The notes under the pieces: model-generated
Database searches by the model: none
What the model was told of the DNA's origin: nothing
What the model saw: the letters and a program-made list of their open reading frames with translations, nothing else
Program-made: the position numbers and the translations under genes
In this document: piece after piece, positions 11,763 to 55,163 of the stretch
How positions within the stretch are numbered: the stretch's first letter is position 1
How the letters are laid out: the number at the start of each line of letters is the position of its first letter
Virus record (IMG/VR): IMGVR_UViG_3300028641_000003
DNA: 55,163 nucleotides
Reading direction: 5' to 3' (one strand)
From: an uncultured virus (IMG/VR IMGVR_UViG_3300028641_000003)
Lineage: Duplodnaviria; Heunggongvirae; Uroviricota; Caudoviricetes

Positions 11763-12113
11763 TTATTTTATATCTTCCTTATATTTAATCTTCTCTTCAA
11801 TCCATATATCTATTGTCTTAATAGAATCTGAATATACATTTTCATTTACTTTAATTGTATGTTGTTTGTAATTCTTTTCGTGTGTTATTTTATTATATAA
11901 TATATGTAAACATGTTATATAAAATTTTCCATAGTGGCTAAAATAATAATTATCGTTCATTTCTTTGAATTTTGGCGATTTCCAAACTATATTCTTGGCA
12001 GTTCTATACCAATTTTTATAGGCATATTTGCATTTTCTTTTTATTATAGAAAACTTCTTTAGTTCTTCTTTAATAAAGATTATTTTTTGTTTTCTTAAAG
12101 TATTGGAATCCAT
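11763..12113 (-). CDS. Basic hypothetical protein (resembles 23815-24201)
   Basis: IKEELK...ITCLHILYN similar to FRSEIK...TTCMHIAYG. Confidence 0.6.
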   Translation of the reverse strand: MDSNTLRKQKIIFIKEELKKFSIIKRKCKYAYKNWYRTAKNIVWKSPKFKEMNDNYYFSHYGKFYITCLHILYNKITHEKNYKQHTIKVNENVYSDSIKTIDIWIEEKIKYKEDIK

Positions 12114-14419: not shown

Positions 14420-14794
14420 TGGTGGAGATGTGCGGTGCTGCCCCGCAGTCCAAAATCACTTTCATATTCCGTCTACAAGTTTAGAAGTTTAGACTTAAAC
14501 TCCAAAGATGCTTCTTGTTGATCGTCCTGGCACGGGACTAGGATAATAACGCATATCCGCAACTCACAGTTGTCTTAATCTTGGGTAACTGTCAGTTACA
14601 TTGCCAAGAAGCAACCCCTATGTTACAGAGTTTCCAAGTCGAGATATCCTTGGGACTCTGGCAAGGAGCGATTAAGCTGCCATTGCGTATTCAACTGAGT
14701 CATCAGTTATTTTTTTACATGTTTTTTAAGTGACCACATGTTCCACTACTTGCAAGAGATACTTCCACGATCCTGTCGAATCTGTGTCATCCCC
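14420..14794 (-). ncRNA. ssrA: tmRNA, tag (A)DDSVEYAMAA
   Basis: 5' GGGGATGA...TTCGAC, 3' ...CATCTCCACCA with G3:U70; ATAACT resume context, tag ORF 14704-14672. Confidence 0.92.
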
Positions 14795-16348: not shown

Positions 16349-16438
16349 TGGCGGAAGATGAGGGATTCGAACCCCCGGTACCCGTTAAGGTACTTCAAGT
16401 TAGTAACTTGCTGCTATAGACCACTCAGCCAATCTTCC
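16349..16438 (-). tRNA. tRNA-Ser(ACT), A34 anticodon
   Basis: Ser body (GGAAGAT acceptor, G73, long arm); loop TT-ACT-AA. Confidence 0.8.
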
Positions 16439-17901: not shown

Positions 17902-18000
17902 TGGTGCGGGCGACAGGATTTGAACCTGCGATTTCTTGCTCCCTGGCAGTTACTATTAGGTAACTAAAGCAAGCGGAATACCAGACTTTCCTACACCCAC
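17902..18000 (-). tRNA. tRNA-Pro(TGG) with 22-nt GCCA-ended insert (17944-17965)
   Basis: Removing AGTTACCTAATAGTAACTGCCA gives CTTGC-TTTGGGA-GCAAG. Confidence 0.8.
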
Positions 18001-18959: not shown

Positions 18960-19076
18960 TTGGGAGTGAGGGATTCGAACCCCCACAGAGAGATCCTGGC
19001 GACTGTTTATGGACTTGAACCACATTGTTTCCTATAACAATCAAAGTCTCTCGTCCTACCATTAGACGAACCCCCA
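18960..19076 (-). tRNA. tRNA-Gln(TTG) with 46-nt minihelix insert (18997-19042)
   Basis: Removal gives AGAGA-CTTTGGA-TCTCT; no encoded CCA. Confidence 0.8.
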
Positions 19077-19712: not shown

Positions 19713-19715
19713 ATA

Positions 19716-19786
19716 TGCAGGATAGAGGAATCGAACCTCTGACTCCGGCTTAACTGCCGGTGTGATAACCACTTCACCAATCCCGC
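19716..19786 (-). tRNA. tRNA-like gene with 6-nt anticodon loop (undetermined)
   Basis: Good acceptor, D and T arms; CCGGC-AGTTAA-GCCGG; no CCA. Confidence 0.6.
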
Positions 19787-19977
19787 TAGGTTTTTGCAGA
19801 ACCTTAACTGACTTTCTATCATTATAGTGGCGAAGATCATCCACTTTTAAGTAGCTTGGGGTACTACTTGTGTAGCATTCCGTAGCTAACGGAGATGCCC
19901 TTTACCAACCCTCTATAATTATTGTGGCGGGGATCGTCCACAGTAAAGCAGCTTTGAGCGTCCTCATTGCCCTATCA

Positions 19978-20048
19978 AGTATCATTACGGAATCGAACCG
20001 TTCCTCCCGCGTCATAAGCGGGTATGCATCCGTTACACCAAAGATACT
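19978..20048 (-). tRNA. tRNA with ATG (His, A34) anticodon
   Basis: CCCGC-TTATGAC-GCGGG; no encoded CCA. Confidence 0.65.
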
Positions 20049-20218: not shown

Positions 20219-20335
20219 AAAAGACCACACCGTTTCTGCATTGTTAAGAGGCTGGTATGGTGCTACTGAACGACCACTCATGGTTGAGCATCTTAGAGAG
20301 GCTTGAGTGGGGCGGAGCCGTTTCATGCTCCTTAT

Positions 20336-22462: not shown

Positions 22463-22602
22463 ACCAGAGAAGAGATTGGGAGCAACAGTGTTTTTGCCGC
22501 TCTGCCGTTGAGCTACCTCACCGTTTGTGGTGAGGGTAGGATTCGAACCTACATCCTGCTCCTTATAATGGAAGTAACCGTCACAATGACTACTTCTCTG
22601 GT
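22463..22602 (-). ncRNA. YrlA-like Y RNA (permuted T arm - closed acceptor - D arm on a long stem)
   Basis: GTAGG-TTCGAAT-CCTAC, CCTCACC-acaaac-GGTGAGG, TAGCTCAACGGCAGAGC inside CCAGAGAAG/CTTCTCTGG. Confidence 0.7.
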
Positions 22603-23480: not shown

Positions 23481-23810
23481 TTACTTCAAAAGCGACAGCT
23501 TACCGAAAATAGCTTTGGACACTTCGTTGTCGATGGGTTCAAAAGCAGTTGCGGTTTCTGCGTTAGACATATCGGGTTCTATGAAGGTGGTGTATGATAA
23601 CTCCATTCTGTCATAGAGTGCCTTTATGCTTGCAATTTCGTTATCCGTTGCGGAGAGAAGAATCATTGTCTTGTGGTTGTTCACCCAATCAATGACTTTG
23701 GGCTTCTGTCCGTGTTGTGCCATAAACTCGGCAGCCGCGTGGCTACTCTGTACAGCACAATGAGTTAACGGAAGTATATCTCGTCTGATGAGGATGAACA
23801 TCTTAAGCAT
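23481..23810 (-). CDS. Peptidyl-tRNA hydrolase, Pth2-like
   Basis: KMFILIRRD...AVQSSHAA..W...K..ILL...F.EPD....TA.AFEP...KLSLL; GGAGG RBS. Confidence 0.8.
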   Translation of the reverse strand: MLKMFILIRRDILPLTHCAVQSSHAAAEFMAQHGQKPKVIDWVNNHKTMILLSATDNEIASIKALYDRMELSYTTFIEPDMSNAETATAFEPIDNEVSKAIFGKLSLLK

Positions 23811-23814
23811 TTTG

Positions 23815-24201
23815 CTATATACCTCCGGTGCCACAGGCACACTCGGGTATGAGAGCATCTTGTTTCTCCTTGACGTAATCTTCCATTCTCTTACGAATGA
23901 TTTCAGAAGACTGAACATATTCTTTTTCTCTCTCTTCGTTTAAGTGGCACTTACCACGAACCTGTCCATACGCTATATGCATACAAGTAGTCCGGTACTT
24001 ATCGTTGCGGATTGCGTTCTCTGCACACCACCAGTATTTTTCACCTGATGTATCGTAGGGGTAGGCATTGCCTGGAAGTCCAGTTGATGCACTACGCTGG
24101 TTGCGGCGTAAAGCCTGTTTGTTGTGAGCAAGTCTCTCAGCGAGAGTCTTGATTTCGCTGCGGAAAAATTCCATTGCGAGTTTATGTTGGGTTATATCCA
24201 T
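23815..24201 (-). CDS. Hypothetical protein co-transcribed with Pth2
   Basis: 128 aa; R..HIAYG..RG-type motif. Confidence 0.7.
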   Translation of the reverse strand: MDITQHKLAMEFFRSEIKTLAERLAHNKQALRRNQRSASTGLPGNAYPYDTSGEKYWWCAENAIRNDKYRTTCMHIAYGQVRGKCHLNEEREKEYVQSSEIIRKRMEDYVKEKQDALIPECACGTGGI

Positions 24202-24253
24202 GATTTTATTCCTTAAGGTTGATTGTTGAGTTTACGAACTACAGACAATCAGC

Positions 24254-24301
24254 TTATGGAGGACCACGAATCAGCTACCCATACTCTTTGTTCTAACGCA
24301 T
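24254..24301 (-). promoter_or_regulatory. Leader ORF MR*NKEYG*LIRGPP* with two in-frame UAGs
   Basis: AAGAAAGGA RBS; final TAA lies in the 5' arm of a hairpin reaching the next RBS. Confidence 0.65.
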
Positions 24302-24333
24302 AGCTATCCTTTCTTGTTGAGGTTAATACGACA

Positions 24334-24409
24334 TGGTGCTTCCGGTGGGATTTTAACCCACAACCAAGCGGTTTAGAATCGCTTGCTCTTTCATTTGAGC
24401 TACGGAGGC
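24334..24409 (-). tRNA. Amber suppressor tRNA (CTA)
   Basis: AGCG(A)-TTCTAAA-(C)CGCT, intact cloverleaf, ACCA. Confidence 0.8.
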
Positions 24410-24414
24410 ATGAA

Positions 24415-24489
24415 TGGTGCCCATCTCTGGTAACGCTCCAGATTCTCTACGATACGAATGTAGTGCATCGCTTTTAATGCTTGATGGGC
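24415..24489 (-). tRNA. tRNA-Thr(CGT)
   Basis: loop TT-CGT-AT. Confidence 0.8.
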
Positions 24490-24493
24490 AAAA

Positions 24494-25919: not shown

Positions 25920-26031
25920 TGGTGCGCCGGGATGGAATTTAACCACCTTCCCCCTTAACTTACAGGCAACTCGCTACGCGCAGCTTGCTGCTAGTTTTTT
26001 GTAAGGCGCTCTAACGATGAGCTACCAACGC
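25920..26031 (-). ncRNA. tRNA scaffold with ~40-nt anticodon-arm insertion
   Basis: GCGTTGG/CCGGCGC-ACCA, GCTC/GAGC D stem. Confidence 0.55.
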
Positions 26032-26494: not shown

Positions 26495-26614
26495 TGGCTG
26501 GAAAGAAGGGATTCGAACCCCTGACCTAGTGATTATGGTGATGAGCGTAAGAGTTGAACTTACTGATTCCTTTGCCCATTACAGTCACTTGCACTACCGC
26601 TGTGCTACTTTCCA
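26495..26614 (-). tRNA. tRNA-Asn(GTT) with 45-nt minihelix insert (26536-26580)
   Basis: Removal gives AGTGA-CTGTTAA-TCACT; G73. Confidence 0.83.
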
Positions 26615-26620
26615 ATGATT

Positions 26621-26718
26621 TGGCGTTCCCGGTAGGATTTGAACCTACGACCATTGGATTATGGCAGTGATTTGTTAATCACCGAAATCCAAAGCTCTTC
26701 CAACTGAGCTACGAGAAC
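26621..26718 (-). tRNA. tRNA-Arg(TCT) with 22-nt microhelix insert (26662-26683)
   Basis: Removal gives TTGGA-TTTCTAA-TCCAA; A20 present. Confidence 0.83.
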
Positions 26719-26721
26719 ATG

Positions 26722-26800
26722 TGGCACCCATGGTAGGAGTTGAACCTACATGTATCCAGTTAGCTTTCTCCTGCTTAGAAGGCAGGCGGCATACATGGGC
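26722..26800 (-). tRNA. D-arm-less tRNA-Arg(TCT)
   Basis: CCTGC-CTTCTAA-GCAGG; D-loop-like TGGATA in the variable region. Confidence 0.72.
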
Positions 26801-44837: not shown

Positions 44838-45566
44838 ATGAAGATAGGAATAGGGATTATTTCATACAAAAGACCCGAAGAATGTCTATCTGTTTGTCAA
44901 GGGGTTTTGAGTACAATTGATAAATCTGTACATAACTATAAGCTAATATGCAGTATTGATCAGGAAGATATCTCAGAATACAAGGAAGTGTTGAAGATTT
45001 TCCCTGTTGTAAATGGTAAGAACGGCGGAGTTGCAGTAAATAAAAATAGAGCATTGTGGAATTTGAGGGATTGTGATGTTATATTTTTACTTGAAGATGA
45101 TTTTAAACCAATATATACTGGATGGGTTGAGTTATACTTAACAGCGTTGAAAGAATCTGGTATGAGACATCTTAATCATATTAGATTGGACCATAGGGAT
45201 TTATTGTATAAGGTTATTAGATTGCCATCTGTTACTTTAGGTATATACCAAAGAAACACAGCGCAACTTATGGTGATGACAAAAGAAGTTATTGAGAAGA
45301 TAGGAGCTTTTGATATTAGCTATGGAAAGTTTGGATATGAGCATAGTGACTACACAAGAAGGTGTAAGTTGGCTGGACTTTGCTCACCGGCAAATCACGA
45401 TGCCCATCCATTTGTGATTGAATCCGACATATACTTTAAAGACCTTGGAACTGCGCCATGTTTCAGTGAAGAAGAAAGAAAGAAATATTCCGAAGAAGCT
45501 AATAAAATATATATGAAATTTGATCCCAATAAAATATACATACCATTCACAAAGGAGATATTATGA
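44838..45566 (+). CDS. Glycosyltransferase family 2
   Basis: IGIISYKR, GVAVNKN, LLEDD, FGYEHSDY. Confidence 0.85.
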   Translation: MKIGIGIISYKRPEECLSVCQGVLSTIDKSVHNYKLICSIDQEDISEYKEVLKIFPVVNGKNGGVAVNKNRALWNLRDCDVIFLLEDDFKPIYTGWVELYLTALKESGMRHLNHIRLDHRDLLYKVIRLPSVTLGIYQRNTAQLMVMTKEVIEKIGAFDISYGKFGYEHSDYTRRCKLAGLCSPANHDAHPFVIESDIYFKDLGTAPCFSEEERKKYSEEANKIYMKFDPNKIYIPFTKEIL

Positions 45567-45754
45567 AGATTATCAATAGACCACAAGCAGTCGTGACCTT
45601 AGAAGATGCTCAGAAGTTACTAACTAAGTTTCTCGAAAAAAAGACGGGAAAAAAGGTAGTTTCTATTGATGTGCCAGAAGCAGCGAGGGGAATATCATTC
45701 ACGATTAACTTCGAAGAAGAAATAAGCGATTTCGAGGAATCTAAGAATGCCTAA
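45563..45754 (+). CDS. Hypothetical protein
   Basis: 63 aa, AAGGAG RBS, overlaps both neighbours. Confidence 0.65.
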   Translation: MKIINRPQAVVTLEDAQKLLTKFLEKKTGKKVVSIDVPEAARGISFTINFEEEISDFEESKNA

Positions 45755-46493
45755 GCCACTTATTGGTATCGGGCTTATAACTTACAATAGATCAGCAGCG
45801 GCTACGGATGTAGCTGAGTCGATTGTAAACACTCTCGACCGTGACCGTTATGATTACAAGCTTGTTTGTTCGCTGGACCAAACCGACACAACCGGATACG
45901 AAAAGGTATCACAGTTGATGAATCTAATTCCACATCGCAATTTGGGAATATCTATTAATAAAAGTATTGCCATGATGCATCTTCAAGAATGCGATCATCT
46001 ATTTTTGTTTGAGGATGACTTCAAACCTACGAGAGTTGGATGGGACACTCTATACTTAAATGTCCACCGTGAAACTGGTGTTGGTTTGTTTAACTACTGT
46101 CCAAAGTGGGTTTCAGATAACGAGAAGCGACCAAAGAAGATTATCAAGGTTCCATCTGGGACTGTGATATTCGAACATACACACGTCGCACAGATAATGT
46201 CAATCACAAAGCAGACATTGAGCAAGGTTGGTGCTTTAGATCCCGATTACATAGGGTATGGATTTGAACATTGTGATTATACTCGCAGATGTATTTTAGC
46301 GGGTGAATTCCCTCGACATGGGTTTCCGTTTATCAAGGAGACATGGGATTACACACAGATGCTTGATGTCCCAAATACAACAAGCGACGAGGACAGAAAG
46401 CCGCAGATTGACCATAACGGCAGGGTGTATGGGAGAGGCGTCGGGAGAATTTTGATACCATTTACAGAAATAGAAAATAGATTAAGGGGCTAA
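45747..46493 (+). CDS. Glycosyltransferase family 2
   Basis: IGLITYNR, LFEDD, YGFEHCDY. Confidence 0.85.
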   Translation: MPKPLIGIGLITYNRSAAATDVAESIVNTLDRDRYDYKLVCSLDQTDTTGYEKVSQLMNLIPHRNLGISINKSIAMMHLQECDHLFLFEDDFKPTRVGWDTLYLNVHRETGVGLFNYCPKWVSDNEKRPKKIIKVPSGTVIFEHTHVAQIMSITKQTLSKVGALDPDYIGYGFEHCDYTRRCILAGEFPRHGFPFIKETWDYTQMLDVPNTTSDEDRKPQIDHNGRVYGRGVGRILIPFTEIENRLRG

Positions 46494-46495
46494 TA

Positions 46496-47278
46496 ATGTC
46501 AAAGTATGATTTAAGAGACACTACATTTATCATGCCTGTTAGAGTCGAATCACAAGATAGAGCCAATAATATCTTAACAAGTGTTTCGTATCTTTTACAT
46601 CATCTTGATACTAATATTATAATCCTTGAAGATGATAAGGTTTCCAAGGTTCCCACGATACTGGGAAGTAAGATAAATCAGGTAAAATACATATTCAATA
46701 AAAACGAAGAATACTTGTTTTGGAAAACTAAGCATTTAAATACGATGGCTCGTCAAGTTACCACTCCTATAATGGTCATGTATGATTGTGATATCATCAT
46801 GGAACCAGATGGGTATGAAAAGACAAGAAATATGATAACGAAGGATGGATTTGAGTATATAGTTGGGTTTGGTGATTTGATGAGAGTTAATCAGAATCAA
46901 CATTATGTTCTTAGGGGATCAATGAATCCTTTGCTTTTTGCAGATAATGGAAAGATGGCGGCTGCTGTTGGTTCTCCTGCCTGGGTGCTGACTAACAAAT
47001 ACATGGAAGCTGGAATGGAAAACGAGTTCTTCAAGTCGTGGGGATTTGAGGATAATGAAAGGCACTGGAGATTTATCAGAATGGGACTTAAACATCGTTA
47101 CGGCGAAGGAAAATTGTGGCATCTTGAACATTGCAGAGTCTCTAATAACTTTAACTCCAATCCCCATTTAGATGCAAACGCAAAGTTGTTTCATGCCGTG
47201 GAATGTGAGTCGCCTGAACAAACAAGAGAAAGAGTTAAGACATTTCCGTGGCTTAGGGAATATGGAATAATAAAATGA
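46496..47278 (+). CDS. Galactosyltransferase-like (GT7 C-terminal domain)
   Basis: YDCD, GMENEFF.SWGFED, HLEH. Confidence 0.82.
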   Translation: MSKYDLRDTTFIMPVRVESQDRANNILTSVSYLLHHLDTNIIILEDDKVSKVPTILGSKINQVKYIFNKNEEYLFWKTKHLNTMARQVTTPIMVMYDCDIIMEPDGYEKTRNMITKDGFEYIVGFGDLMRVNQNQHYVLRGSMNPLLFADNGKMAAAVGSPAWVLTNKYMEAGMENEFFKSWGFEDNERHWRFIRMGLKHRYGEGKLWHLEHCRVSNNFNSNPHLDANAKLFHAVECESPEQTRERVKTFPWLREYGIIK

Positions 47279-47901
47279 TACCTAAGATAATACATCAAAT
47301 ATGGGTTGGTGATCAAAATAAGAAACCATTTAAGATGATGGAAACTTGGAAGAACATGAATCCAAGTTGGGAATATATGCTGTGGACAGATGCAAATCTT
47401 CCACCAATGATTAATCGCCGTCACTTTGACGCATACTCACCATTTCACGGAAAAGCTGATATATTGCGTTACGAAATACTCAAGCAGTACGGTGGGTTCT
47501 ATATTGATGCTGATTCTGATTGCATTAAACCATTGGAAGATTTTTTAGTTGATAATGACTCGTTTGCGTGTTTTGAAAGCGAGCAGCATAGACCGGGGCT
47601 AATAGCTAATGGATACTTAGCCGGTGTTAAGAATTGCCAGTTATTTGACATATTGATACAGAAGATATCCAGAATGAACCCGCAGCATATGAACGGGATG
47701 GCTCCCCCATGGATTTTAACAGGTCCGACTCTTTTGACCAATAGTATCAGAGAACACAACTATACAAAGATTAAAGTATATCCTTCACATTATTTTATTC
47801 CTAATCATTTTTGTGGTGGTTCTTACACGGGATCTGATCACGTGTTTTGTCGGCAATATTGGGGATCAACACACGATAGTTACGGGAACCTGGGAAGATG
47901 A
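47275..47901 (+). CDS. GT32/OCH1-like DXD glycosyltransferase
   Basis: IPKIIHQIW, ADILRYEIL..YGGFYIDAD, TGP. Confidence 0.88.
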   Translation: MIPKIIHQIWVGDQNKKPFKMMETWKNMNPSWEYMLWTDANLPPMINRRHFDAYSPFHGKADILRYEILKQYGGFYIDADSDCIKPLEDFLVDNDSFACFESEQHRPGLIANGYLAGVKNCQLFDILIQKISRMNPQHMNGMAPPWILTGPTLLTNSIREHNYTKIKVYPSHYFIPNHFCGGSYTGSDHVFCRQYWGSTHDSYGNLGR

Positions 47902-48653
47902 AACACAACTTAAAAAATATAACATTTAATATGCCAATGTTAGTCGATTCCAACGACAGAGTTGAAAATATAGACTTATGTATTGATTATATTTTGCATC
48001 ACTTTGATACAAATATATCAGTTTGTGAAATGGGAACCGAAAGTAAATATAAGAATCCTTTTGGTGTTGAGTATGAGTTTATAAAAACAGACAGTGATAA
48101 AAATCATAAGACAAAAATTCTAAATATTTTAGCAAGAAAATGCAAAACTGAGTTTCATTCCACTTATGACGTAGATGTATTGTTACCAGTTAAAGCCTAC
48201 ATAGATGGGTATAATATGCTATCAAGCGGTAATTACGATATGGTATTTCCGTTTGACGGTAGATTTTTTGGAGTCGGTAGAAACCACTATGGTATTTTAA
48301 GACAGAATAAAAATACAGATGTATTAATTTCTGGTATGTTTTATCCTATTGTTTCGGATTCTGTTGGTGGCTGTGTATTTTGGAACACAAAATCATTTAT
48401 ATCATCGGGAATGGAAAATGAAAATTTCTCTGGGTGGGGCTACGAAGACACAGAAAGATATCATAGAAGTGTAAAACTTGGATTACGCATAGGTAGGACT
48501 TCATATCCAATATTTCACGTAGACCATTTCAGGGGACCAAATAGCAGTCACGGAGAAATGTATTGGAGAAATAAGTCTATATACGATTCAATTACGAGAA
48601 TGAATGCTGATGAGTTAAGAAGACATATATCAGAATGGAAATGGTCTAAATAG
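47898..48653 (+). CDS. Galactosyltransferase-like (GT7 C-terminal domain)
   Basis: YDVD, SVGG, GMENENFSGWGYED. Confidence 0.82.
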   Translation: MKHNLKNITFNMPMLVDSNDRVENIDLCIDYILHHFDTNISVCEMGTESKYKNPFGVEYEFIKTDSDKNHKTKILNILARKCKTEFHSTYDVDVLLPVKAYIDGYNMLSSGNYDMVFPFDGRFFGVGRNHYGILRQNKNTDVLISGMFYPIVSDSVGGCVFWNTKSFISSGMENENFSGWGYEDTERYHRSVKLGLRIGRTSYPIFHVDHFRGPNSSHGEMYWRNKSIYDSITRMNADELRRHISEWKWSK

Positions 48654-49457
48654 TTATCTTAATATTATTGGCATCTCAAAGTGTGGTGATATAAAATTAG
48701 TATTTTCTATGTTGGCGTTTATATACATTCTCTTACCATTTAGATATTCATTTAATATGTAATCTTCCGAAATATTGGAATGCGGAGTATCGTTGTTATT
48801 ATGAACTCTGTTTATTGGATTGTTAAATAGTCTAGACTTCTTATAACATAACATATACGGTTGGTTAAGATAATTTATACTTAAATTATATTCAAATAGA
48901 GTTGGATTATTAAAAGGTATTCTTTCTATTATGGGAAGAATGTCAGAAGTCCTAAATATATGACCATCAACCGACATTGGGTATCCCCAATCTCCCTCAC
49001 ACCCATGCCATCTCCATGTTCCATTTTCTAGTTTAGGTATATTTCTGTATTTTATTCTAGCTGGATGACAGTAGCTCATTCCCTCATTCATTCTCAAGGA
49101 TACGCATAATATTTCTTTATTAGATGATAAGGATTTAATCTCCGTGTCGTCTTCTGAGAATTTTTCTTTGACAATAATATCATCCACGAGGAAAAAAGTG
49201 TACCCCTTTTCTATGTTAATAGTAGATAATGTCAATTCTTTAAAGTTTTTTCCAGAGTTGTTTTCACATATGAAGCTTACTTCATTGTAATCCTTAATGA
49301 GTTTGTCATATCCCAACTTATGCCTGTCGTTTTTAAACTTATATATTACATTTATTTTATTGTCTTTGTAATTTGTGAAATGCTCCTTTAGAGTTCTAAG
49401 AAGCTGATCTAGCTGGCATGCTCTATCTTTACTAAAGACGGTTATATTGAAACTCAT
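48654..49457 (-). CDS. Glycosyltransferase-like protein
   Basis: FSKDRACQL, FLVDD, GYPMSVDGH. Confidence 0.7.
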   Translation of the reverse strand: MSFNITVFSKDRACQLDQLLRTLKEHFTNYKDNKINVIYKFKNDRHKLGYDKLIKDYNEVSFICENNSGKNFKELTLSTINIEKGYTFFLVDDIIVKEKFSEDDTEIKSLSSNKEILCVSLRMNEGMSYCHPARIKYRNIPKLENGTWRWHGCEGDWGYPMSVDGHIFRTSDILPIIERIPFNNPTLFEYNLSINYLNQPYMLCYKKSRLFNNPINRVHNNNDTPHSNISEDYILNEYLNGKRMYINANIENTNFISPHFEMPIILR

Positions 49458-49459
49458 GG

Positions 49460-50236
49460 TTATTTCTTGACTCCGAATAGATAATTTTGGTTTCCTATAT
49501 GCTCAATTGGAACTTTATGCCACTTTATTTCTGGTATGTTGTTACTCATGTAACTAAAGAAATCATTATTATCGACACCTTCAAATGATCCCTGGTATGC
49601 TATAATAAAATTAGATATGTTTACTCTTCGCAGAAAATTTTCCCTGACAGACCTCGGTGCTTCGCTTAATGACCATGTAGCAACTAATAGATCGTATTGT
49701 TTATTTTCTAGATTTTCTATATTATTGCAAAACTTAGTATCTGTTATACCATTTTCGTTTAAATAATATTTCTGTAATAGATTAAATTCCTCAAAGTCAA
49801 ATATTGTATAATCTATTTGATTGTTTTGGTTTTTTATTACCTTGCACATGTTACCAAAACCACCACCAAACTCAACCACGGAATTAAGTGACTTTAAATG
49901 AACTCCTGTTGTATCAGTAAATTTTTGTATATGGTATAACATATGGATAGTATTGGAACATACTCCGTTATGTGTGGTTTCGTGCTTTAAATTGTTTCTT
50001 GACACGAATTTAATATATTCTTTGTCTTTTATATAATCATATTCATTCTTAACATAGCCATGTATATTTGATACATACATTGTTTTGTGAATCTCATCCC
50101 ATGAAGCAAAATCACTAATATCTTCATTGATTATTTTTCTTAGGACTGAAGACCTTATTGAATCCCAAAAACAACTGCCATAGGAGTTTCTGCTAGATAT
50201 TATTTTGGCTTCTTCTTTTATTTGTATGTTTAGCAT
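49460..50236 (-). CDS. Putative sugar O-methyltransferase
   Basis: VVEFGGGFG, YTIFD, ATWSLSE. Confidence 0.75.
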   Translation of the reverse strand: MLNIQIKEEAKIISSRNSYGSCFWDSIRSSVLRKIINEDISDFASWDEIHKTMYVSNIHGYVKNEYDYIKDKEYIKFVSRNNLKHETTHNGVCSNTIHMLYHIQKFTDTTGVHLKSLNSVVEFGGGFGNMCKVIKNQNNQIDYTIFDFEEFNLLQKYYLNENGITDTKFCNNIENLENKQYDLLVATWSLSEAPRSVRENFLRRVNISNFIIAYQGSFEGVDNNDFFSYMSNNIPEIKWHKVPIEHIGNQNYLFGVKK

Positions 50237-50943
50237 TGGTATTTTCCATTTTTTAGTATGTTACATAAATCTTCTTCCGATATCTCACTAAATGACCTAT
50301 TTTTATGTTTTAATAATTTAACACATGAATTTATATTCATACTGAATTTATAATTGTTGTCGTGTACAAACCTCGAACTCCATTCTACGTCCTCGCCATG
50401 CCCCCAACATAAATCCTCGTTTAGCCTTATTTTTTCCATAATATCTTTTTTACAAACAAAATAAGAACCAGAAAAATATTGGTATGTTGATAGATTCATA
50501 TTATACGGTATTAAACACCTTTCTCCACACTCTACAATTCTTTTATGAACATACCCATAGTGTGCAAATGGAAATAACGACCAATCTCTAAATCTGCTTC
50601 CGTCTATTGATATTATTTTGTTCATACACGCCAAGAAATTATTTCCAAAAGCAACATATCCACTATACCATCCGTCACAAAATGTTATGTAATCATGAAG
50701 GTATACTATATTCTCGTGTATTGAATTTTCTGTTATTATGTTCTTTTTTCGTGTTATCCATCCGGGTTTTATGTTTTCATTGAAGTTTATTATTTTAGTA
50801 TTTTTTCTATTTATTTGACAGTTACCGACAATAACTATTTCATACTTATTTTCTGGTATTTTTTGATGTTCTATAGAATCAATAATAAGATTTAAGTTAT
50901 TTTCGTTACCACCGGCGGTTATTATTCCAAATGAAAAATTCAT
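50230..50943 (-). CDS. Glycosyltransferase family 2-like
   Basis: FSFGIIT, WITRKKN, LHDY, GEDVEW. Confidence 0.75.
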   Translation of the reverse strand: MNFSFGIITAGGNENNLNLIIDSIEHQKIPENKYEIVIVGNCQINRKNTKIINFNENIKPGWITRKKNIITENSIHENIVYLHDYITFCDGWYSGYVAFGNNFLACMNKIISIDGSRFRDWSLFPFAHYGYVHKRIVECGERCLIPYNMNLSTYQYFSGSYFVCKKDIMEKIRLNEDLCWGHGEDVEWSSRFVHDNNYKFSMNINSCVKLLKHKNRSFSEISEEDLCNILKNGKYQC

Positions 50944-51380
50944 ACTAAATCCTCAAATTGATCAAAACATATACCGTATATCCTATCATTACGAAGTAAT
51001 TCAAAGTATGTTTGTATTTCTCTAACCATTACAATAGAATTTTCTATTGGCTCGCAATTCGGGTATACAACAGGTATTGCCCGAGAAGTTAGCGTATAAG
51101 TATCTTCTTGATGCCAAAAGCAATGTATTTCACGAAACTTAAGCATAAAACTCAAAGAATTTGAATTTTTTGCATGGCATAATAATCTATTGTTCATTAG
51201 ATAATTTTGATTTATCGGATATGTTGGGGCATCGTGACCAAGATATAAATCGCCATTAATTCTCCACACGTCTATTTCGACATCGTAGCCACTATTAATA
51301 GCAGAATTTATGTATTCTGGTCTGTTTTCATAGATGGGATGTATTCCATTTATGTTTCCTCTATGTGATATTAATTTCAT
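50940..51380 (-). CDS. Glycerophosphodiester phosphodiesterase-like protein
   Basis: ISHRGN, YDVEIDV, LGHD, HAKN. Confidence 0.75.
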   Translation of the reverse strand: MKLISHRGNINGIHPIYENRPEYINSAINSGYDVEIDVWRINGDLYLGHDAPTYPINQNYLMNNRLLCHAKNSNSLSFMLKFREIHCFWHQEDTYTLTSRAIPVVYPNCEPIENSIVMVREIQTYFELLRNDRIYGICFDQFEDLV

Positions 51381-51381
51381 T

Positions 51382-52305
51382 TTAGACCCATCTAGAGAGA
51401 ATATTTGAAAATGAGGTTGCTATATTAAGAAAATTTCCGACAGTATTGTAACTTGGGTGAATCGAATTTGAATTCCTTATAAAAGCCAAATCTAGATTAT
51501 ATTTATCTTTATATAGATTTATAGGAACTTCATCAAATGGATCTCTATATAGGGAAGAATTGTTTATTATATCTCTCCATATTTTAGTCTTTATTATAAA
51601 AACCGAATTACAAAAATAAGGTACTTTTTTGTTTTGAATATAGTAATCTTGTTTTTCTGTTATTTTGTCTTTTTTGTTTTGAATAAAATTCATCATTTTT
51701 ATTTGAGCATTTTCATTTACTCTTATGGGGTGGATGCCTTTGTAAAAATGATTTATTTTAGATACTTCCCCGTAGTAGTAATCAGAATCCCATTTCTCTT
51801 TTCTTTTGTTTAAGATTTCGTAACTAGCCCCCCACAGATTCGGTATATTGGTATTATTAAAAATATCATACATTTCTTGTTTTTCTGTATTATCTAAAAC
51901 ATCTTCAATAAACATCTCTACTGATGGTATTCCAGTTGATAAAACAGGTGTTAAAGCTAAAATATTTTCTTTGTCTAAGTACGATAAATTATCCATAATA
52001 AATTGTAAAACATAATGAGTAATGAAAATATCCTCGTCAATTTTCATTGAATAATCAGATTCTACATTTATCGCATTTTTTATTTTTGGTAAATAATCCC
52101 CACATCCGTTTTCATTTAAGACAATAAAATTTATATTATTACTCTTTAATATATTTTTATGCATCTCAAGATTTAATCCATTTTGAGAATGCATAACAAC
52201 TTGAAATGAATTTTTATATTCATTGTTTATTTTTGATATTTCTTTTATTGTATTTAATAAAAAATACAATCTACTGAATGGCAATACATGAATGGATAAT
52301 CTCAT
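51382..52305 (-). CDS. Glycosyltransferase-like protein
   Basis: KIDED DXD motif. Confidence 0.6.
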   Translation of the reverse strand: MRLSIHVLPFSRLYFLLNTIKEISKINNEYKNSFQVVMHSQNGLNLEMHKNILKSNNINFIVLNENGCGDYLPKIKNAINVESDYSMKIDEDIFITHYVLQFIMDNLSYLDKENILALTPVLSTGIPSVEMFIEDVLDNTEKQEMYDIFNNTNIPNLWGASYEILNKRKEKWDSDYYYGEVSKINHFYKGIHPIRVNENAQIKMMNFIQNKKDKITEKQDYYIQNKKVPYFCNSVFIIKTKIWRDIINNSSLYRDPFDEVPINLYKDKYNLDLAFIRNSNSIHPSYNTVGNFLNIATSFSNILSRWV

Positions 52306-52306
52306 T

Positions 52307-52627
52307 TTATTCTTCGTACTTATCGTTTTTAGCTCCTGGGACTTTTACTACAACTGTCGCAGCGTCTTCGATACATAGGAAATCGGTAACTTCATCTGGA
52401 TGAATAACAAGAATATCGTCTTTTTTGTAGATTTGGTCGTTCATTTTAACTTTGCCGTAGCAAATTAAGGTTATCTCGGTAGCTACTTTATGGTAGTGTC
52501 TTTTATCGTAGTCTCCTTTTTTATATTCTTTAAAAGCCACTTCACATGACGGTGTGGAATAAGCGACCGGAGTTATATCGCCAACAAACCAACCTTTTAT
52601 CATATTTTTTAAGTTAAAAATATTCAT
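52307..52627 (-). CDS. Cupin-domain protein
   Basis: KGWFVG, HYHKVATE, VVKVPG. Confidence 0.78.
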   Translation of the reverse strand: MNIFNLKNMIKGWFVGDITPVAYSTPSCEVAFKEYKKGDYDKRHYHKVATEITLICYGKVKMNDQIYKKDDILVIHPDEVTDFLCIEDAATVVVKVPGAKNDKYEE

Positions 52628-52628
52628 T

Positions 52629-53303
52629 TTACTTTCCTTTGCAGAGGCAAACAATGTTTAATTCGTCGGCTTTATATAACTCTATTATGCCCAACTCACA
52701 AAACTCCAACATCTGTTTAAGATTTTGTATATCAAAACAGTGATGGTGAACTACTCTTGTTAAGTAGTTATTAGCACACAACTCGTTAAAATTTGATATT
52801 CCGCCACGACTCCAATCGTGGAGTGTTTTTTGTTCGTTTATATGTGTTTCGTCTTTTTCGTCCGTTTTGTTATAGTAATCAGATAATAGATGTTCATATT
52901 TTGTCAGTGGTCTTCTATGATCAAAACAGAAATTTTTATCAGGGACAACAAATAGTATATACCCGTTACTAACTAAAACATTGTTTTTCCAATTTATTAC
53001 ACATTGTATGGGGTTTGCTACATGCTCAATAACATGTGCATTAACAATATAATTATATTTGACATTGGGTTTAAATGTTACACAATCGCCGTCGTAATTT
53101 TTCCCCTTTAACATTCCGTCGCAAATGTATTCATTGCATAGATTTCTCTGGAATGGATTATTATCAAATTTATTTACTCCATCTATTTTAGCCAAAGAAT
53201 CATATAGGGGCAATAGGTTATTTTTACAAAACAACTCAGTTGGTCCACCAAACTCAATGCCTCTTTCGAGAGTTTTTAATAATGATATTATGTTATTCCA
53301 CAT
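52629..53303 (-). CDS. SAM-dependent methyltransferase
   Basis: GIEFGGP, HVIEHVANP, FDHRRP. Confidence 0.78.
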   Translation of the reverse strand: MWNNIISLLKTLERGIEFGGPTELFCKNNLLPLYDSLAKIDGVNKFDNNPFQRNLCNEYICDGMLKGKNYDGDCVTFKPNVKYNYIVNAHVIEHVANPIQCVINWKNNVLVSNGYILFVVPDKNFCFDHRRPLTKYEHLLSDYYNKTDEKDETHINEQKTLHDWSRGGISNFNELCANNYLTRVVHHHCFDIQNLKQMLEFCELGIIELYKADELNIVCLCKGK

Positions 53304-53304
53304 T

Positions 53305-54165
53305 TTAATTTTCTATTACGAATGTGTTTGGTAGTATTTCTTTTACTTTAACAAATCTTTTTGCTAAATCAACAGATTCTCTAAATAATAAACCCGCAAA
53401 TGGTTCTATGTCATGTAATACTCTCATTTTTCCTATGTGACTAAATGGAGACACTATTTCGGCGTTATTCAATAAATTTATTTTGTCTTTGAAATAATCA
53501 ATCTCGTTATCTGCGAATTTGTTTTTTAGATTTTTCGAGGAAAAATACTCCTTTTCAATAAGCTGTGTTATGTGGTTTAATTCGCCTGAATCGTATGCCA
53601 AATCTAATTTATTTCCAACTTGGACCCCAAAGCACTCTGACTGACTATAGAGTTGCATTCCTATTTTCATTTCTCCGTCATGGTCGCTAGAGAAATCCCA
53701 ATGTATTTTGTTTAGATACTGTGTTTTTGCGAACCAAAATGGCGCTCTTATGTGGCTTTCGTGGGGATATCTTTTCCCACCGTTAAATACTTGTGATGCG
53801 CCAAATCCACATTTATCATGTATATTAAGATCATGCAATATATTCTTTATCCAACTATCTCTTCGTATAACAACATCATCAGAAACAAATATAAAATAGT
53901 CGTAATTGTTTTTGAGCAGATTGAAATAATGTCTGTAAGCTCCAAATGCTCGGTGTGGTATATCTTCTCCTTTTTGGTTTATTTTATTAAAAAATATAAC
54001 CTCTCCAAATTTGTTTTTGATGTTACTTGGAAGAAACATTCCATTGCGATGTACAACAATTAGATCATGAGACGCTCCTGGCGTGCATTCATTGTAAGAA
54101 TTCCAGAAATATACATTCTGAGCATCGGTCGCTGCCAGTAAAATAACACATACTCTCTCTGTCAT
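53305..54165 (-). CDS. Glycosyltransferase-like hypothetical protein
   Basis: FGAYR, FVSDD. Confidence 0.55.
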   Translation of the reverse strand: MTERVCVILLAATDAQNVYFWNSYNECTPGASHDLIVVHRNGMFLPSNIKNKFGEVIFFNKINQKGEDIPHRAFGAYRHYFNLLKNNYDYFIFVSDDVVIRRDSWIKNILHDLNIHDKCGFGASQVFNGGKRYPHESHIRAPFWFAKTQYLNKIHWDFSSDHDGEMKIGMQLYSQSECFGVQVGNKLDLAYDSGELNHITQLIEKEYFSSKNLKNKFADNEIDYFKDKINLLNNAEIVSPFSHIGKMRVLHDIEPFAGLLFRESVDLAKRFVKVKEILPNTFVIEN

Positions 54166-55163
54166 ATACTGCCTTTATAGTTCTCCAAAAAGTAATTTAA
54201 ATCTTCTGGCGTTCCTATTCCCCACATCTTATCTATATCATATATCTTTATCTTCTTGCCATCGGCTATGGCTTCGTTATAAACAGGAGCAACATAAAAT
54301 TCATTATTAACTCTAATGTTCTTACCGATCATTTGCTCGGCGTATCGAACATATTCACTTCCTCTAGACCAATAATACACTCCAACGGTTGCCTTATTGG
54401 ATATGACTTGCTTTTCTTTTAATTCGGTTACATATCCATCATTATCTATTTTGACGTAAGACCACTTTGGATGGGTGTTTTCAAATGTCAATATACCACC
54501 GTCACATTTTCCAGAAGACATAACATACATAAACTCTGAGCTATTCCATTCCATAAATTGATCGGAGTTGGCTATAAGTAATGGCTCTTGGTTGTTTATG
54601 AATTCTTTAGCCAAAAGAGTCGTGCATGCTGCTCCCTCGGTTAATGCATCTACACAAACGATATTGCAATTTGGGGTTATTATATTTAACATATGTTTCA
54701 AGTTAAATTTATCGTAGTGTTCTTTTCTAACTACATAAGTAAAATTTGCTTCAATATTTAAGTTATCAACAACCACTTGTATCATTGGCTTGCTTCTTAC
54801 TTCTATAAGAGGCTTAGGAAAGGTATATCCTGCTGCGGTAAAGCGACTGCCTGCGCCTGCCATTGGTATTAGAATGTTCATCTTAGTTCCTCTCCATGGG
54901 GTTTTTAATACAGACCGATATTTGTTTATATGATTGTATATATTTTCTATATTTACTTCATTTGTGTCTTTAACAATACATACATTGGCTTTTGAGGCAT
55001 TTGCAGCCGTTATACCAACATGAGAATCTTCTACTATCATAGTTTCACATGGGGAACACCCAGAATCTAACATTGCCTTGATATACATAGCTGGATGGGG
55101 TTTAGGGTACTTAACATCTTCATTTGAAATATAGTCATCTACCCATTCTAATAAACCAAGCCT
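54162..55163 (-). CDS. HAD phosphatase fused to sugar-phosphate nucleotidyltransferase (5' end outside window)
   Basis: SNEDV..PKPHP..Y, IVEDS..G; IPMAGAGSRF...PKPLI, NSDQ, GTPEDL. Confidence 0.85.
   Translation of the reverse strand, partial: RLGLLEWVDDYISNEDVKYPKPHPAMYIKAMLDSGCSPCETMIVEDSHVGITAANASKANVCIVKDTNEVNIENIYNHINKYRSVLKTPWRGTKMNILIPMAGAGSRFTAAGYTFPKPLIEVRSKPMIQVVVDNLNIEANFTYVVRKEHYDKFNLKHMLNIITPNCNIVCVDALTEGAACTTLLAKEFINNQEPLLIANSDQFMEWNSSEFMYVMSSGKCDGGILTFENTHPKWSYVKIDNDGYVTELKEKQVISNKATVGVYYWSRGSEYVRYAEQMIGKNIRVNNEFYVAPVYNEAIADGKKIKIYDIDKMWGIGTPEDLNYFLENYKGSI

Follow-up and report, generated by a model that had tools for sequence, protein, structure and literature searches.

What an amber suppressor tRNA does in a phage that ends its own genes in UAG is the question raised by a locus in the window analyzed here, a stretch of 55,163 nucleotides that is a section of a jumbo phage encoding baseplate proteins, ribonucleotide reductase, and methylases. 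A candidate suppressor, tRNA(CUA), is followed there by a short leader with two in-frame UAG codons and an RGPP motif and then by two genes. What we establish here is how the locus is built, that its frame is conserved, that it is linked to tRNA(CUA), and that the phage uses the standard code. The leader is real and conserved in frame, and it is probably regulatory. Its sequence and folding models point, with a probability of roughly 0.7, to a translational ON switch that would gauge amber suppression against RF1, the next two genes probably being made only when the phage tRNA(CUA) overrides both UAGs. Only 32 nt from it, the suppressor tRNA of a standard-code phage would have a concrete and conserved target, and a fragment of about 250 nt would suffice to test the role of this tRNA in a laboratory strain.

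Activated sludge is the origin indicated by the best public holders of the sequence; 14 of the 24 listed runs carry at least half of its words, and one may be the source. TAG closes ordinary open reading frames in the window, in positions 1-64000 of G001, in positions 1-55000 of G002, and in all of G004. It terminates 9 of the 43 non-overlapping window ORFs of at least 100 amino acids, with read-through tails of 2 to 18 codons, and 11 of the 190 long ORFs in G004. No code-15 signature was found in these four stretches, where decoding TAG extends coverage no more than decoding TGA, and the long extensions under TAG decoding are next genes or antisense frames. Since ordinary genes end in UAG in the phages examined, these phages are not recoded and use the standard code. 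Elsewhere in the window, positions 44838-55088 hold a glycosyltransferase-like gene cluster, and 47275-47901 gives weak matches to Gly_transf_sug, Caps_synth, and the TcdA/TcdB glycosyltransferase domain, below the cut-off length; an ordinary DXD glycosyltransferase is its likeliest identity.

The tRNA(CUA), the leader, and both downstream genes form one uninterrupted minus-strand run (Table 1), located within a minus-strand cluster of about 40 tRNAs and one tmRNA that extends from about 30600 to 14200 (ARAGORN, Rfam). In the 5'-to-3' direction, the tRNA, the RBS, the leader, and the hairpin precede the two genes. The leader parts named in the original prediction (RBS, ATG, both in-frame TAGs, RGPP, and TAA) are read directly at the places it gave, and the tRNA that it put about 30 nt upstream ends 32 nt before the leader ATG. 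No promoter above chance level was detected near the locus, and an RNA-library contig (run X16) spanning 23929-24292 reveals neither transcription nor ends.

Table 1. Features of the leader locus in the window
Feature	Position	Strand	Remarks
tRNA, anticodon CUA, candidate amber suppressor	24334..24409	-	ARAGORN; Rfam 56.9 bits; encoded CCA end, A73
Leader Shine-Dalgarno AAGAAAGGA	24307..24315	-	5 nt before ATG; AAAGGA kept in 5/5 loci
Leader ORF	24254..24301	-	M R x N K E Y G x L I R G P P UAA, a length of 15 codons when both UAG are decoded; frame kept in 5/5 loci
First UAG	24293..24295	-	codon 3 (codon 4 in L005 and L036); next base A in 5/5 loci
TAT GGG TAG, Tyr-Gly and second UAG (24275-24277)	24275..24283	-	invariant in five-locus alignment A7
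RGPP codons CGT GGT CCT CCA, arrest-type motif	24257..24268	-	followed by TAA at 24254-24256
Hairpin, Pro-Pro codons to downstream Shine-Dalgarno AAGGA (24214-24210)	24210..24260	-	-14.7 kcal/mol; z -3.4; 0/200 shuffles as good
128-aa all-helical protein	23815..24201	-	first regulated gene; ends in TAG; 20 homologues, 14 cluster representatives; model pLDDT 83
Pth2-fold protein, 109 aa	23481..23810	-	start 4 nt past preceding stop

Five distinct loci, each with upstream DNA, were counted (Table 2). Of 40 candidate stretches that 21 aligned homologues picked out in metagenomes, 6 were confirmed: the three distinct loci L005, L007, and L008, two copies identical to the window, and one stretch lacking upstream DNA. 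A search of viral sequences with six distant members of the family yielded 66 candidates, of which L036 alone was confirmed. Loci identical to the window (L003, L004) or without upstream DNA (L001, L002, L006, L009, L015) were not counted as independent. Protein scans of the genome contigs, and of 240 stretches with alignment A6, gave no further locus, and the leader pattern was found once in G001 and once in G004. The original prediction was staked on conservation of the in-frame TAGs and of RGPP; both UAGs, YG-UAG, and RGPP are found in one shared frame in all five distinct loci. Four of these are close kin, so their conserved letters are not independent. The fifth, L036, lies in a 214-kb record of a distant phage, whose two downstream gene products share 34% and 44% identity with those of the window.

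Table 2. Leaders of the five distinct loci (@, UAG), their spacings in codons, and the modeled cost of opening the downstream start region (kcal/mol) for each ribosome position
Locus	Leader	Start-UAG1/UAG1-UAG2/UAG2-R	No ribosome	At UAG1	At UAG2	At Pro/Pro
Window	MR@NKEYG@LIRGPP, stop	2/6/3	8.9	13.1	5.0	4.5
L005	MRR@KEYG@LIRGPP, stop	3/5/3	11.4	13.6	7.3	4.5
L007	MR@NAEYG@LIRGPP, stop	2/6/3	14.4	16.1	14.6	6.7
L008	MR@NKYG@LIRGPP, stop	2/5/3	14.8	14.3	8.4	7.7
L036	MIA@KKLEYG@VGCRGPP, then 18 codons to TGA overlapping next ATG	3/7/4	7.6	7.5	8.6	3.0

Contigs of runs X15 and X22 (depth below 5) carry L005-type substitutions at 24257-24296, the one-codon shift of the first UAG among them, and are not independent of L005. 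The mis-extended N-terminus MDLL of homologue P0017 matches the +1-frame VDLL over the L036 RGPP codons, a hint at a sixth leader that was left uncounted. Seventeen pattern-scan matches were excluded from every count: L010, the single viral-contig match to the DNA pattern, sits inside a long opposite-strand ORF; the 14 relaxed-pattern matches L017 to L030 are GC-rich, and inspection of all 14 found neither the 128-aa gene nor the Pth2 gene after any of them, so they were read as chance, as were the two genome-contig matches L034 and L035.

As predicted, the leader lies beside an amber tRNA, and it does so in all five loci, where tRNA(CUA) is upstream on the same strand, with 32, 32, 316, 661, and 30 nt between it and the leader ATG (32 nt in the window and 30 nt in L036). 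In three of them, a tRNA 3' end directly precedes the leader element. The tRNAs(CUA) of L036 and the window share 43 of about 76 bases, and judged by their sequences the leader-linked tRNAs belong to at least two lineages. The tRNA(CUA) of L008 is missed by ARAGORN and was detected by Rfam and by eye, and L007 has two different tRNA(CUA) genes (278-353 and 600-674). Among the six CUA tRNAs, the discriminator base is A73 in four and G73 in two. The anticodon stem varies on both sides among the window, L005, and L008, with an A31-C39 mismatch retained, and the window tRNA(CUA) has a C3-A70 mismatch. The cloverleaf, the CUA anticodon, and the CCA end are all present and conserved in this candidate suppressor, which would decode UAG if charged. 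The "Pyl" label given by ARAGORN derives from the CUA anticodon alone, and an identity as pyrrolysine tRNA was rejected. Immediately 5' of tRNA(CUA), at 24414-24490 on the minus strand, lies a tRNA-like element with loop TT CGT AT and a CCA end that is called by neither ARAGORN nor Rfam and is also found in L005.

The two genes under this leader had been proposed to be rescue genes, with Pth2 second. The Pth2 fold is borne out; the gene starts at 23810 (109 amino acids) and not at 23918. Its product matches PF01981 with 36 bits, over the cut-off of 23, and scores 25.6 against the cut-off of 126 of the NCBIfam Pth2 equivalog. The model (pLDDT 96.6) superimposes on the archaeal Pth2 3erj with a TM of 0.86 and an E value of 5.9e-08. 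In archaeal Pth2, we take Lys, Asp, and Thr to be the catalytic positions; these align with His17, Glu78, and Ser82 of the phage protein. Glu78 is fully and His17 nearly invariant across 19 Pth2-like homologues. By its model, the second gene product has a Pth2 fold and is a putative hydrolase with altered catalytic positions. This change at the catalytic positions weakens the rescue assignment, as does the 128-aa protein, whose model of three long helices finds no family and no distinctive fold match (generic helical hairpins only, best Z of 6.6; Atlas matches below 0.8). The 128-aa family has no match among GenBank phages, and a fused longer form was not found in a weak search. Complex prediction for the two proteins gave a score of 0.00, which weighs neither way.

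A paralogue of the 128-aa gene (window 11763-12113, minus strand; E value of 2e-11 to the family profile) has neither a leader nor a Pth2 neighbor. It is preceded by a sigma-70-like TTGACA...TACATAAT, and no RBS is found there. G003 carries a Pth2-like gene that is 46% identical, with no tRNA, 128-aa gene, or leader pattern; this record is only 84% complete and has an insertion element before the Pth2-like gene, so it is a weak control. No RxPP leader was found at the Pth2-like genes of four phage records (LR756500, Aeromonas phage 65, and two Vibrio phages). In L016, an IS200/IS605-type element with a TnpB-like ORF (1220-2500) lies directly before the Pth2-like gene and downstream of a Thg1-like ORF, as named from the translations.

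In the switch that we favor, ribosomes would initiate at the leader's own RBS and, under the standard code, host RF1 would terminate at the first UAG by default, the hairpin keeping the Shine-Dalgarno of the 128-aa gene shut. Once tRNA(CUA) is mature, charged, and able to outcompete RF1, the ribosome would pass both UAGs; because the two gates stand in series, output would roughly follow the square of suppression. The RGPP literature and the folding models suggest that the ribosome would then halt or dwell, with Pro-Pro in the P and A sites over the anti-Shine-Dalgarno codons, and free the downstream start, so that the 128-aa protein and the coupled Pth2-fold protein would be synthesized. Read-through would cross the anti-Shine-Dalgarno even if no lasting stall occurred, in L036 ending on the next start codon, and thus the sign of the switch would be independent of arrest. 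The purpose may be read-through clean-up, suppressor feedback, or a match in time with the maturing set of phage tRNAs: most likely, both proteins would appear once this set works and UAG-ended host and phage genes are read through, and would clear the resulting peptidyl-tRNA or damp suppression.

The same anatomy could serve another input if the leader sensed a shortage or inhibition of RF1, the suppressor tRNA being a constant competitor and the Pth2-fold protein substituting for failed release. More suppressor and less RF1 cannot be told apart in sequence, the output gene has a peptidyl-tRNA hydrolase fold, and no RF-1 family gene was found in G002 and G003 (both incomplete records), so the phage appears reliant on host RF1. 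We consider RF1 sensing unlikely, since the window shows no sign of an RF1-directed function and a signaling role of the tRNA is the simpler explanation for the tight leader-tRNA(CUA) linkage in all five loci.

The hairpin proposed to run from the TAA to the AAGGA RBS is real and does reach AAGGA, and it begins within the Pro-Pro codons rather than only at the TAA: the UCC of these codons is base-paired to GGA in the Shine-Dalgarno of the 128-aa gene. A hairpin is present in all five loci (z from -1.8 to -5.0). In L036 its stem is rewritten in sequence, yet the Pro codons again pair with AGGA. To follow the consequences for translation, a ribosome footprint was stepped codon by codon along the leader in a folding model and the cost of opening the downstream start region was computed (Table 2). 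From 7.6 to 14.8 kcal/mol without a ribosome, this cost falls to 3.0 to 7.7 kcal/mol with the ribosome at Pro/Pro in all five loci, as computed only. The modeled costs imply that a stop at UAG1 would leave the genes off and that arrival at RGPP would open them, in five of five loci. The original claim that only a ribosome reaching RGPP opens the hairpin holds in these models as far as Pro/Pro opens the start in every locus, but a ribosome paused at UAG2 already opens it partly in three of five (the window, L005, and L008; not L007 and L036).

This partial opening bears on a second alternative, in which the working stall would be at the second UAG, through a termination-blocking E-Y-G-stop peptide as in TnaC or PepNL, or in which a default minigene of two or three codons would sense peptidyl-tRNA drop-off and the level of Pth, RGPP being secondary in either case. 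TAT GGG TAG is indeed the longest invariant stretch of the five-locus leader alignment, and PepNL is a short peptide that arrests at its own stop codon and is freed by read-through, according to the available text of PMC11890864. A stall at UAG2 leaves the in-frame RGPP unexplained, chiefly in L036, where the spacer is changed by one codon and the Gly codon is synonymous, and a ribosome at UAG2 fails to open the L036 start (8.6 versus 7.6 kcal/mol free). As for the minigene, the drop-off link drawn in the original prediction relied on two codons, which are found in only three of the five loci (three codons in L005 and L036), and both length and second residue vary (R, RR, IA). Together these observations make the second alternative improbable.

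The leader is conserved as codons. All three of its spacings vary between loci, invariably by whole codons, and the RGPP codon differences are all synonymous (Gly GGT/GGA; second Pro CCA/CCC/CCT). RGPP stands immediately before the UAA in four of five leaders and 18 codons ahead of the stop in L036, and reaching it needs both UAGs to be read. To gauge chance, a first-order Markov model of the tRNA cluster was used to generate 6 Mb of sequence, and the RBS-plus-ATG starts in it were scored; an early TAG occurred in 683 of 10,989 such starts, and R[AG]PP in the read-through frame in 0 of 683. Two context rules, that GGG before UAG raises read-through and that UAG-CUN is exempt from the purine rule, were given no weight. 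GGG makes up 14% of Gly codons in the window and 13% in G004. The second UAG is followed by C in four of five loci, and not by the favored purine. The base after the first UAG is A in five of five loci, whereas among true TAG stops it is A at 0 of 9 in the window and at 3 of 11 in G004; the available text of PMC6266110 describes A after UAG as favoring suppression.

The conservation of codons also bears on whether the element acts as RNA only, as a processing or structure signal of the tRNA-cluster transcript in which the codons would be incidental. CCUCC is an anti-Shine-Dalgarno, and the element lies directly behind a tRNA 3' end in three of five loci. The RGPP codons and the GGG of the four closely related loci also pair with the downstream start region, which could account for part of their conservation. 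However, this pairing is missing in L036, the leader RBS and ATG are kept in all five loci, the spacing changes are all multiples of three, UAG1 is displaced by exactly one codon in L005 and in the X15 and X22 contigs, the RGPP differences are solely synonymous, and there is no Rfam family match; a purely RNA-level role is thus very improbable.

The +1 frame across the second UAG reads Met-Gly-Ser/Arg-stop in the window (24282-24271, minus strand) and in all four related leaders, with three different stop codons. That the functional product is this overlapping minigene beginning inside TAT GGG is hardly credible even with ATG GGT AG(C/G) followed by a stop (TGA, TGA, TAA, TAA, TAG) in five of five loci, since it is without a Shine-Dalgarno at a usable distance, ATG GGT AG arises automatically from TAT GGG TAG, and the stop may merely trap +1 slippage at a paused UAG2.

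The suppression-gated switch shares parts with several known systems. In ermC, cat, secM-secA, and mifM-yidC2, the position of a ribosome on a short leader opens a sequestered Shine-Dalgarno. The phage locus resembles these attenuators in that a hairpin over the downstream Shine-Dalgarno is opened, by computation, by a ribosome at the stall site, and differs from them in its proposed input, which would be the decoding of UAG by a phage tRNA and not an antibiotic or the state of secretion. The programmed frameshift of prfB serves RF2 autoregulation, and prfB senses RF2. Competition at an internal stop codon would set the outcome in the phage leader as it does in prfB and, from the available text of PMC11890864, in PepNL. 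Unlike in prfB, the ribosome would stay in frame as it reads through to a stall motif whose effect, in cis, is on the genes downstream; unlike in PepNL, where that text has read-through relieve arrest, read-through would here cause it.

Among the closest known systems are the RAPP/RGPP arrest peptides (ApdA, ApdP, ApcA, SecM with RAGP, CruR, and Streptomyces lividans uORFs; PMC12992588, available text), which share with the phage locus a uORF whose C-terminal RGPP lies in one arm of a hairpin covering the RBS of the next gene. Those are mostly secreted or membrane proteins, the Sec/YidC cases being released by pulling, whereas the phage leader would give a cytoplasmic peptide of 14 to 15 residues reached only via two UAG codons. 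The leader peptides are polar, of 14 to 15 residues (33 in L036), and contain no hydrophobic, signal, or transmembrane segment. In the available text of PMC12992588, RGPP gives the most robust arrest across several contexts, the ribosome stalling with the third codon in its P site and the fourth in its A site; a RAPP-like motif by itself is insufficient for arrest without an upstream segment. In the phage leaders, YG-x is invariant ahead of RGPP, L-I versus V-G-C differs, and just 10 to 14 residues precede the motif. The main text of PMC12992588 contains the words "phage," "stop codon," and "readthrough" nowhere.

In stop-codon-recoded phages (bioRxiv 10.1101/2021.08.26.457843, available part), a phage tRNA(CUA) is likewise proposed to time or gate expression via in-frame UAG, and suppressor tRNAs of standard-code phages are viewed there as a step toward recoding; in the present phage, UAG stays a normal stop and the gate would be confined to a regulatory leader. 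Streptomyces UUA/bldA gating, as in the adpA uORF with UUA, also makes the availability of one charged tRNA gate a uORF codon, but with a rare sense codon, a host tRNA, and no arrest motif reported in the available part of PMC10732093. Pth2-type genes are known in jumbo phages and have been proposed to aid ribosome rescue (PMC7824862), and the available part of that article mentions no leader or regulation, unlike what is found at the Pth2-fold gene of the window. The full-text literature searched, with most subscription journals and all supplements outside its scope (e.g., the uORF lists of PMC12992588, drawn from annotated bacterial proteomes), gave no description of an amber-gated arrest leader. 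What would be new is leader-peptide translational control with stop-codon suppression as its input.

Stalling at RGPP and read-through of the UAGs, if they occur as the sequence suggests, would bring this input to arrest-peptide regulation, put RGPP arrest into phages and into a very short peptide, and supply a gain-of-signal reporter for amber suppression or RF1 activity. A wider reading, tentative and at a little less than even odds, is that in standard-code jumbo phages an "orphan" amber suppressor tRNA serves as a regulatory signal private to the phage. It would be read by a dedicated class of leaders, in which serial UAG gates are followed by an RGPP stall over an anti-Shine-Dalgarno, and a feedback loop would be closed by the action of the Pth2-fold protein and the 128-aa protein on the suppressor or on the peptidyl-tRNAs it creates. 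If true, this loop would be a natural sensor of nonsense suppression.

The surrounding tRNA cluster holds further unusual elements. A phage tmRNA lies at 14420-14794 of the window (minus strand; Rfam 108.7 bits) and at 561-939 of L008, where the tag frame appears unusually long. An abiF RNA match above the gathering score lies within the cluster at 20273-20310 (minus strand) and at 1881-1917 of L008, and weak Y-RNA-like (YrlA) matches below the gathering score lie at 22496-22559 and 26661-26773 (minus strand) and at 4344-4471 of L036. Over-long tRNA matches of 109 to 117 nt at 18960-19076, 26498-26614, and 25923-26031 (minus strand) possibly carry insertions or introns. A tRNA at 19713-19786 (minus strand), called by ARAGORN as "tt" and by Rfam with 55 bits, has a 6-nt anticodon loop containing TTA and may be of ochre type or cause frameshifting. 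An A at the wobble position is rare among bacterial tRNAs. Such tRNAs (ACT, AGT, ATG, ACC, AAG) are found at 16349-16438, 17902-18000, and 19977-20048 of the window (minus strand), at 1657-1746 and 1921-1994 of L008, and at 2061-2152 and 4721-4806 of L036, and the Ser(ACT) tRNA with wobble A recurs in three phages.
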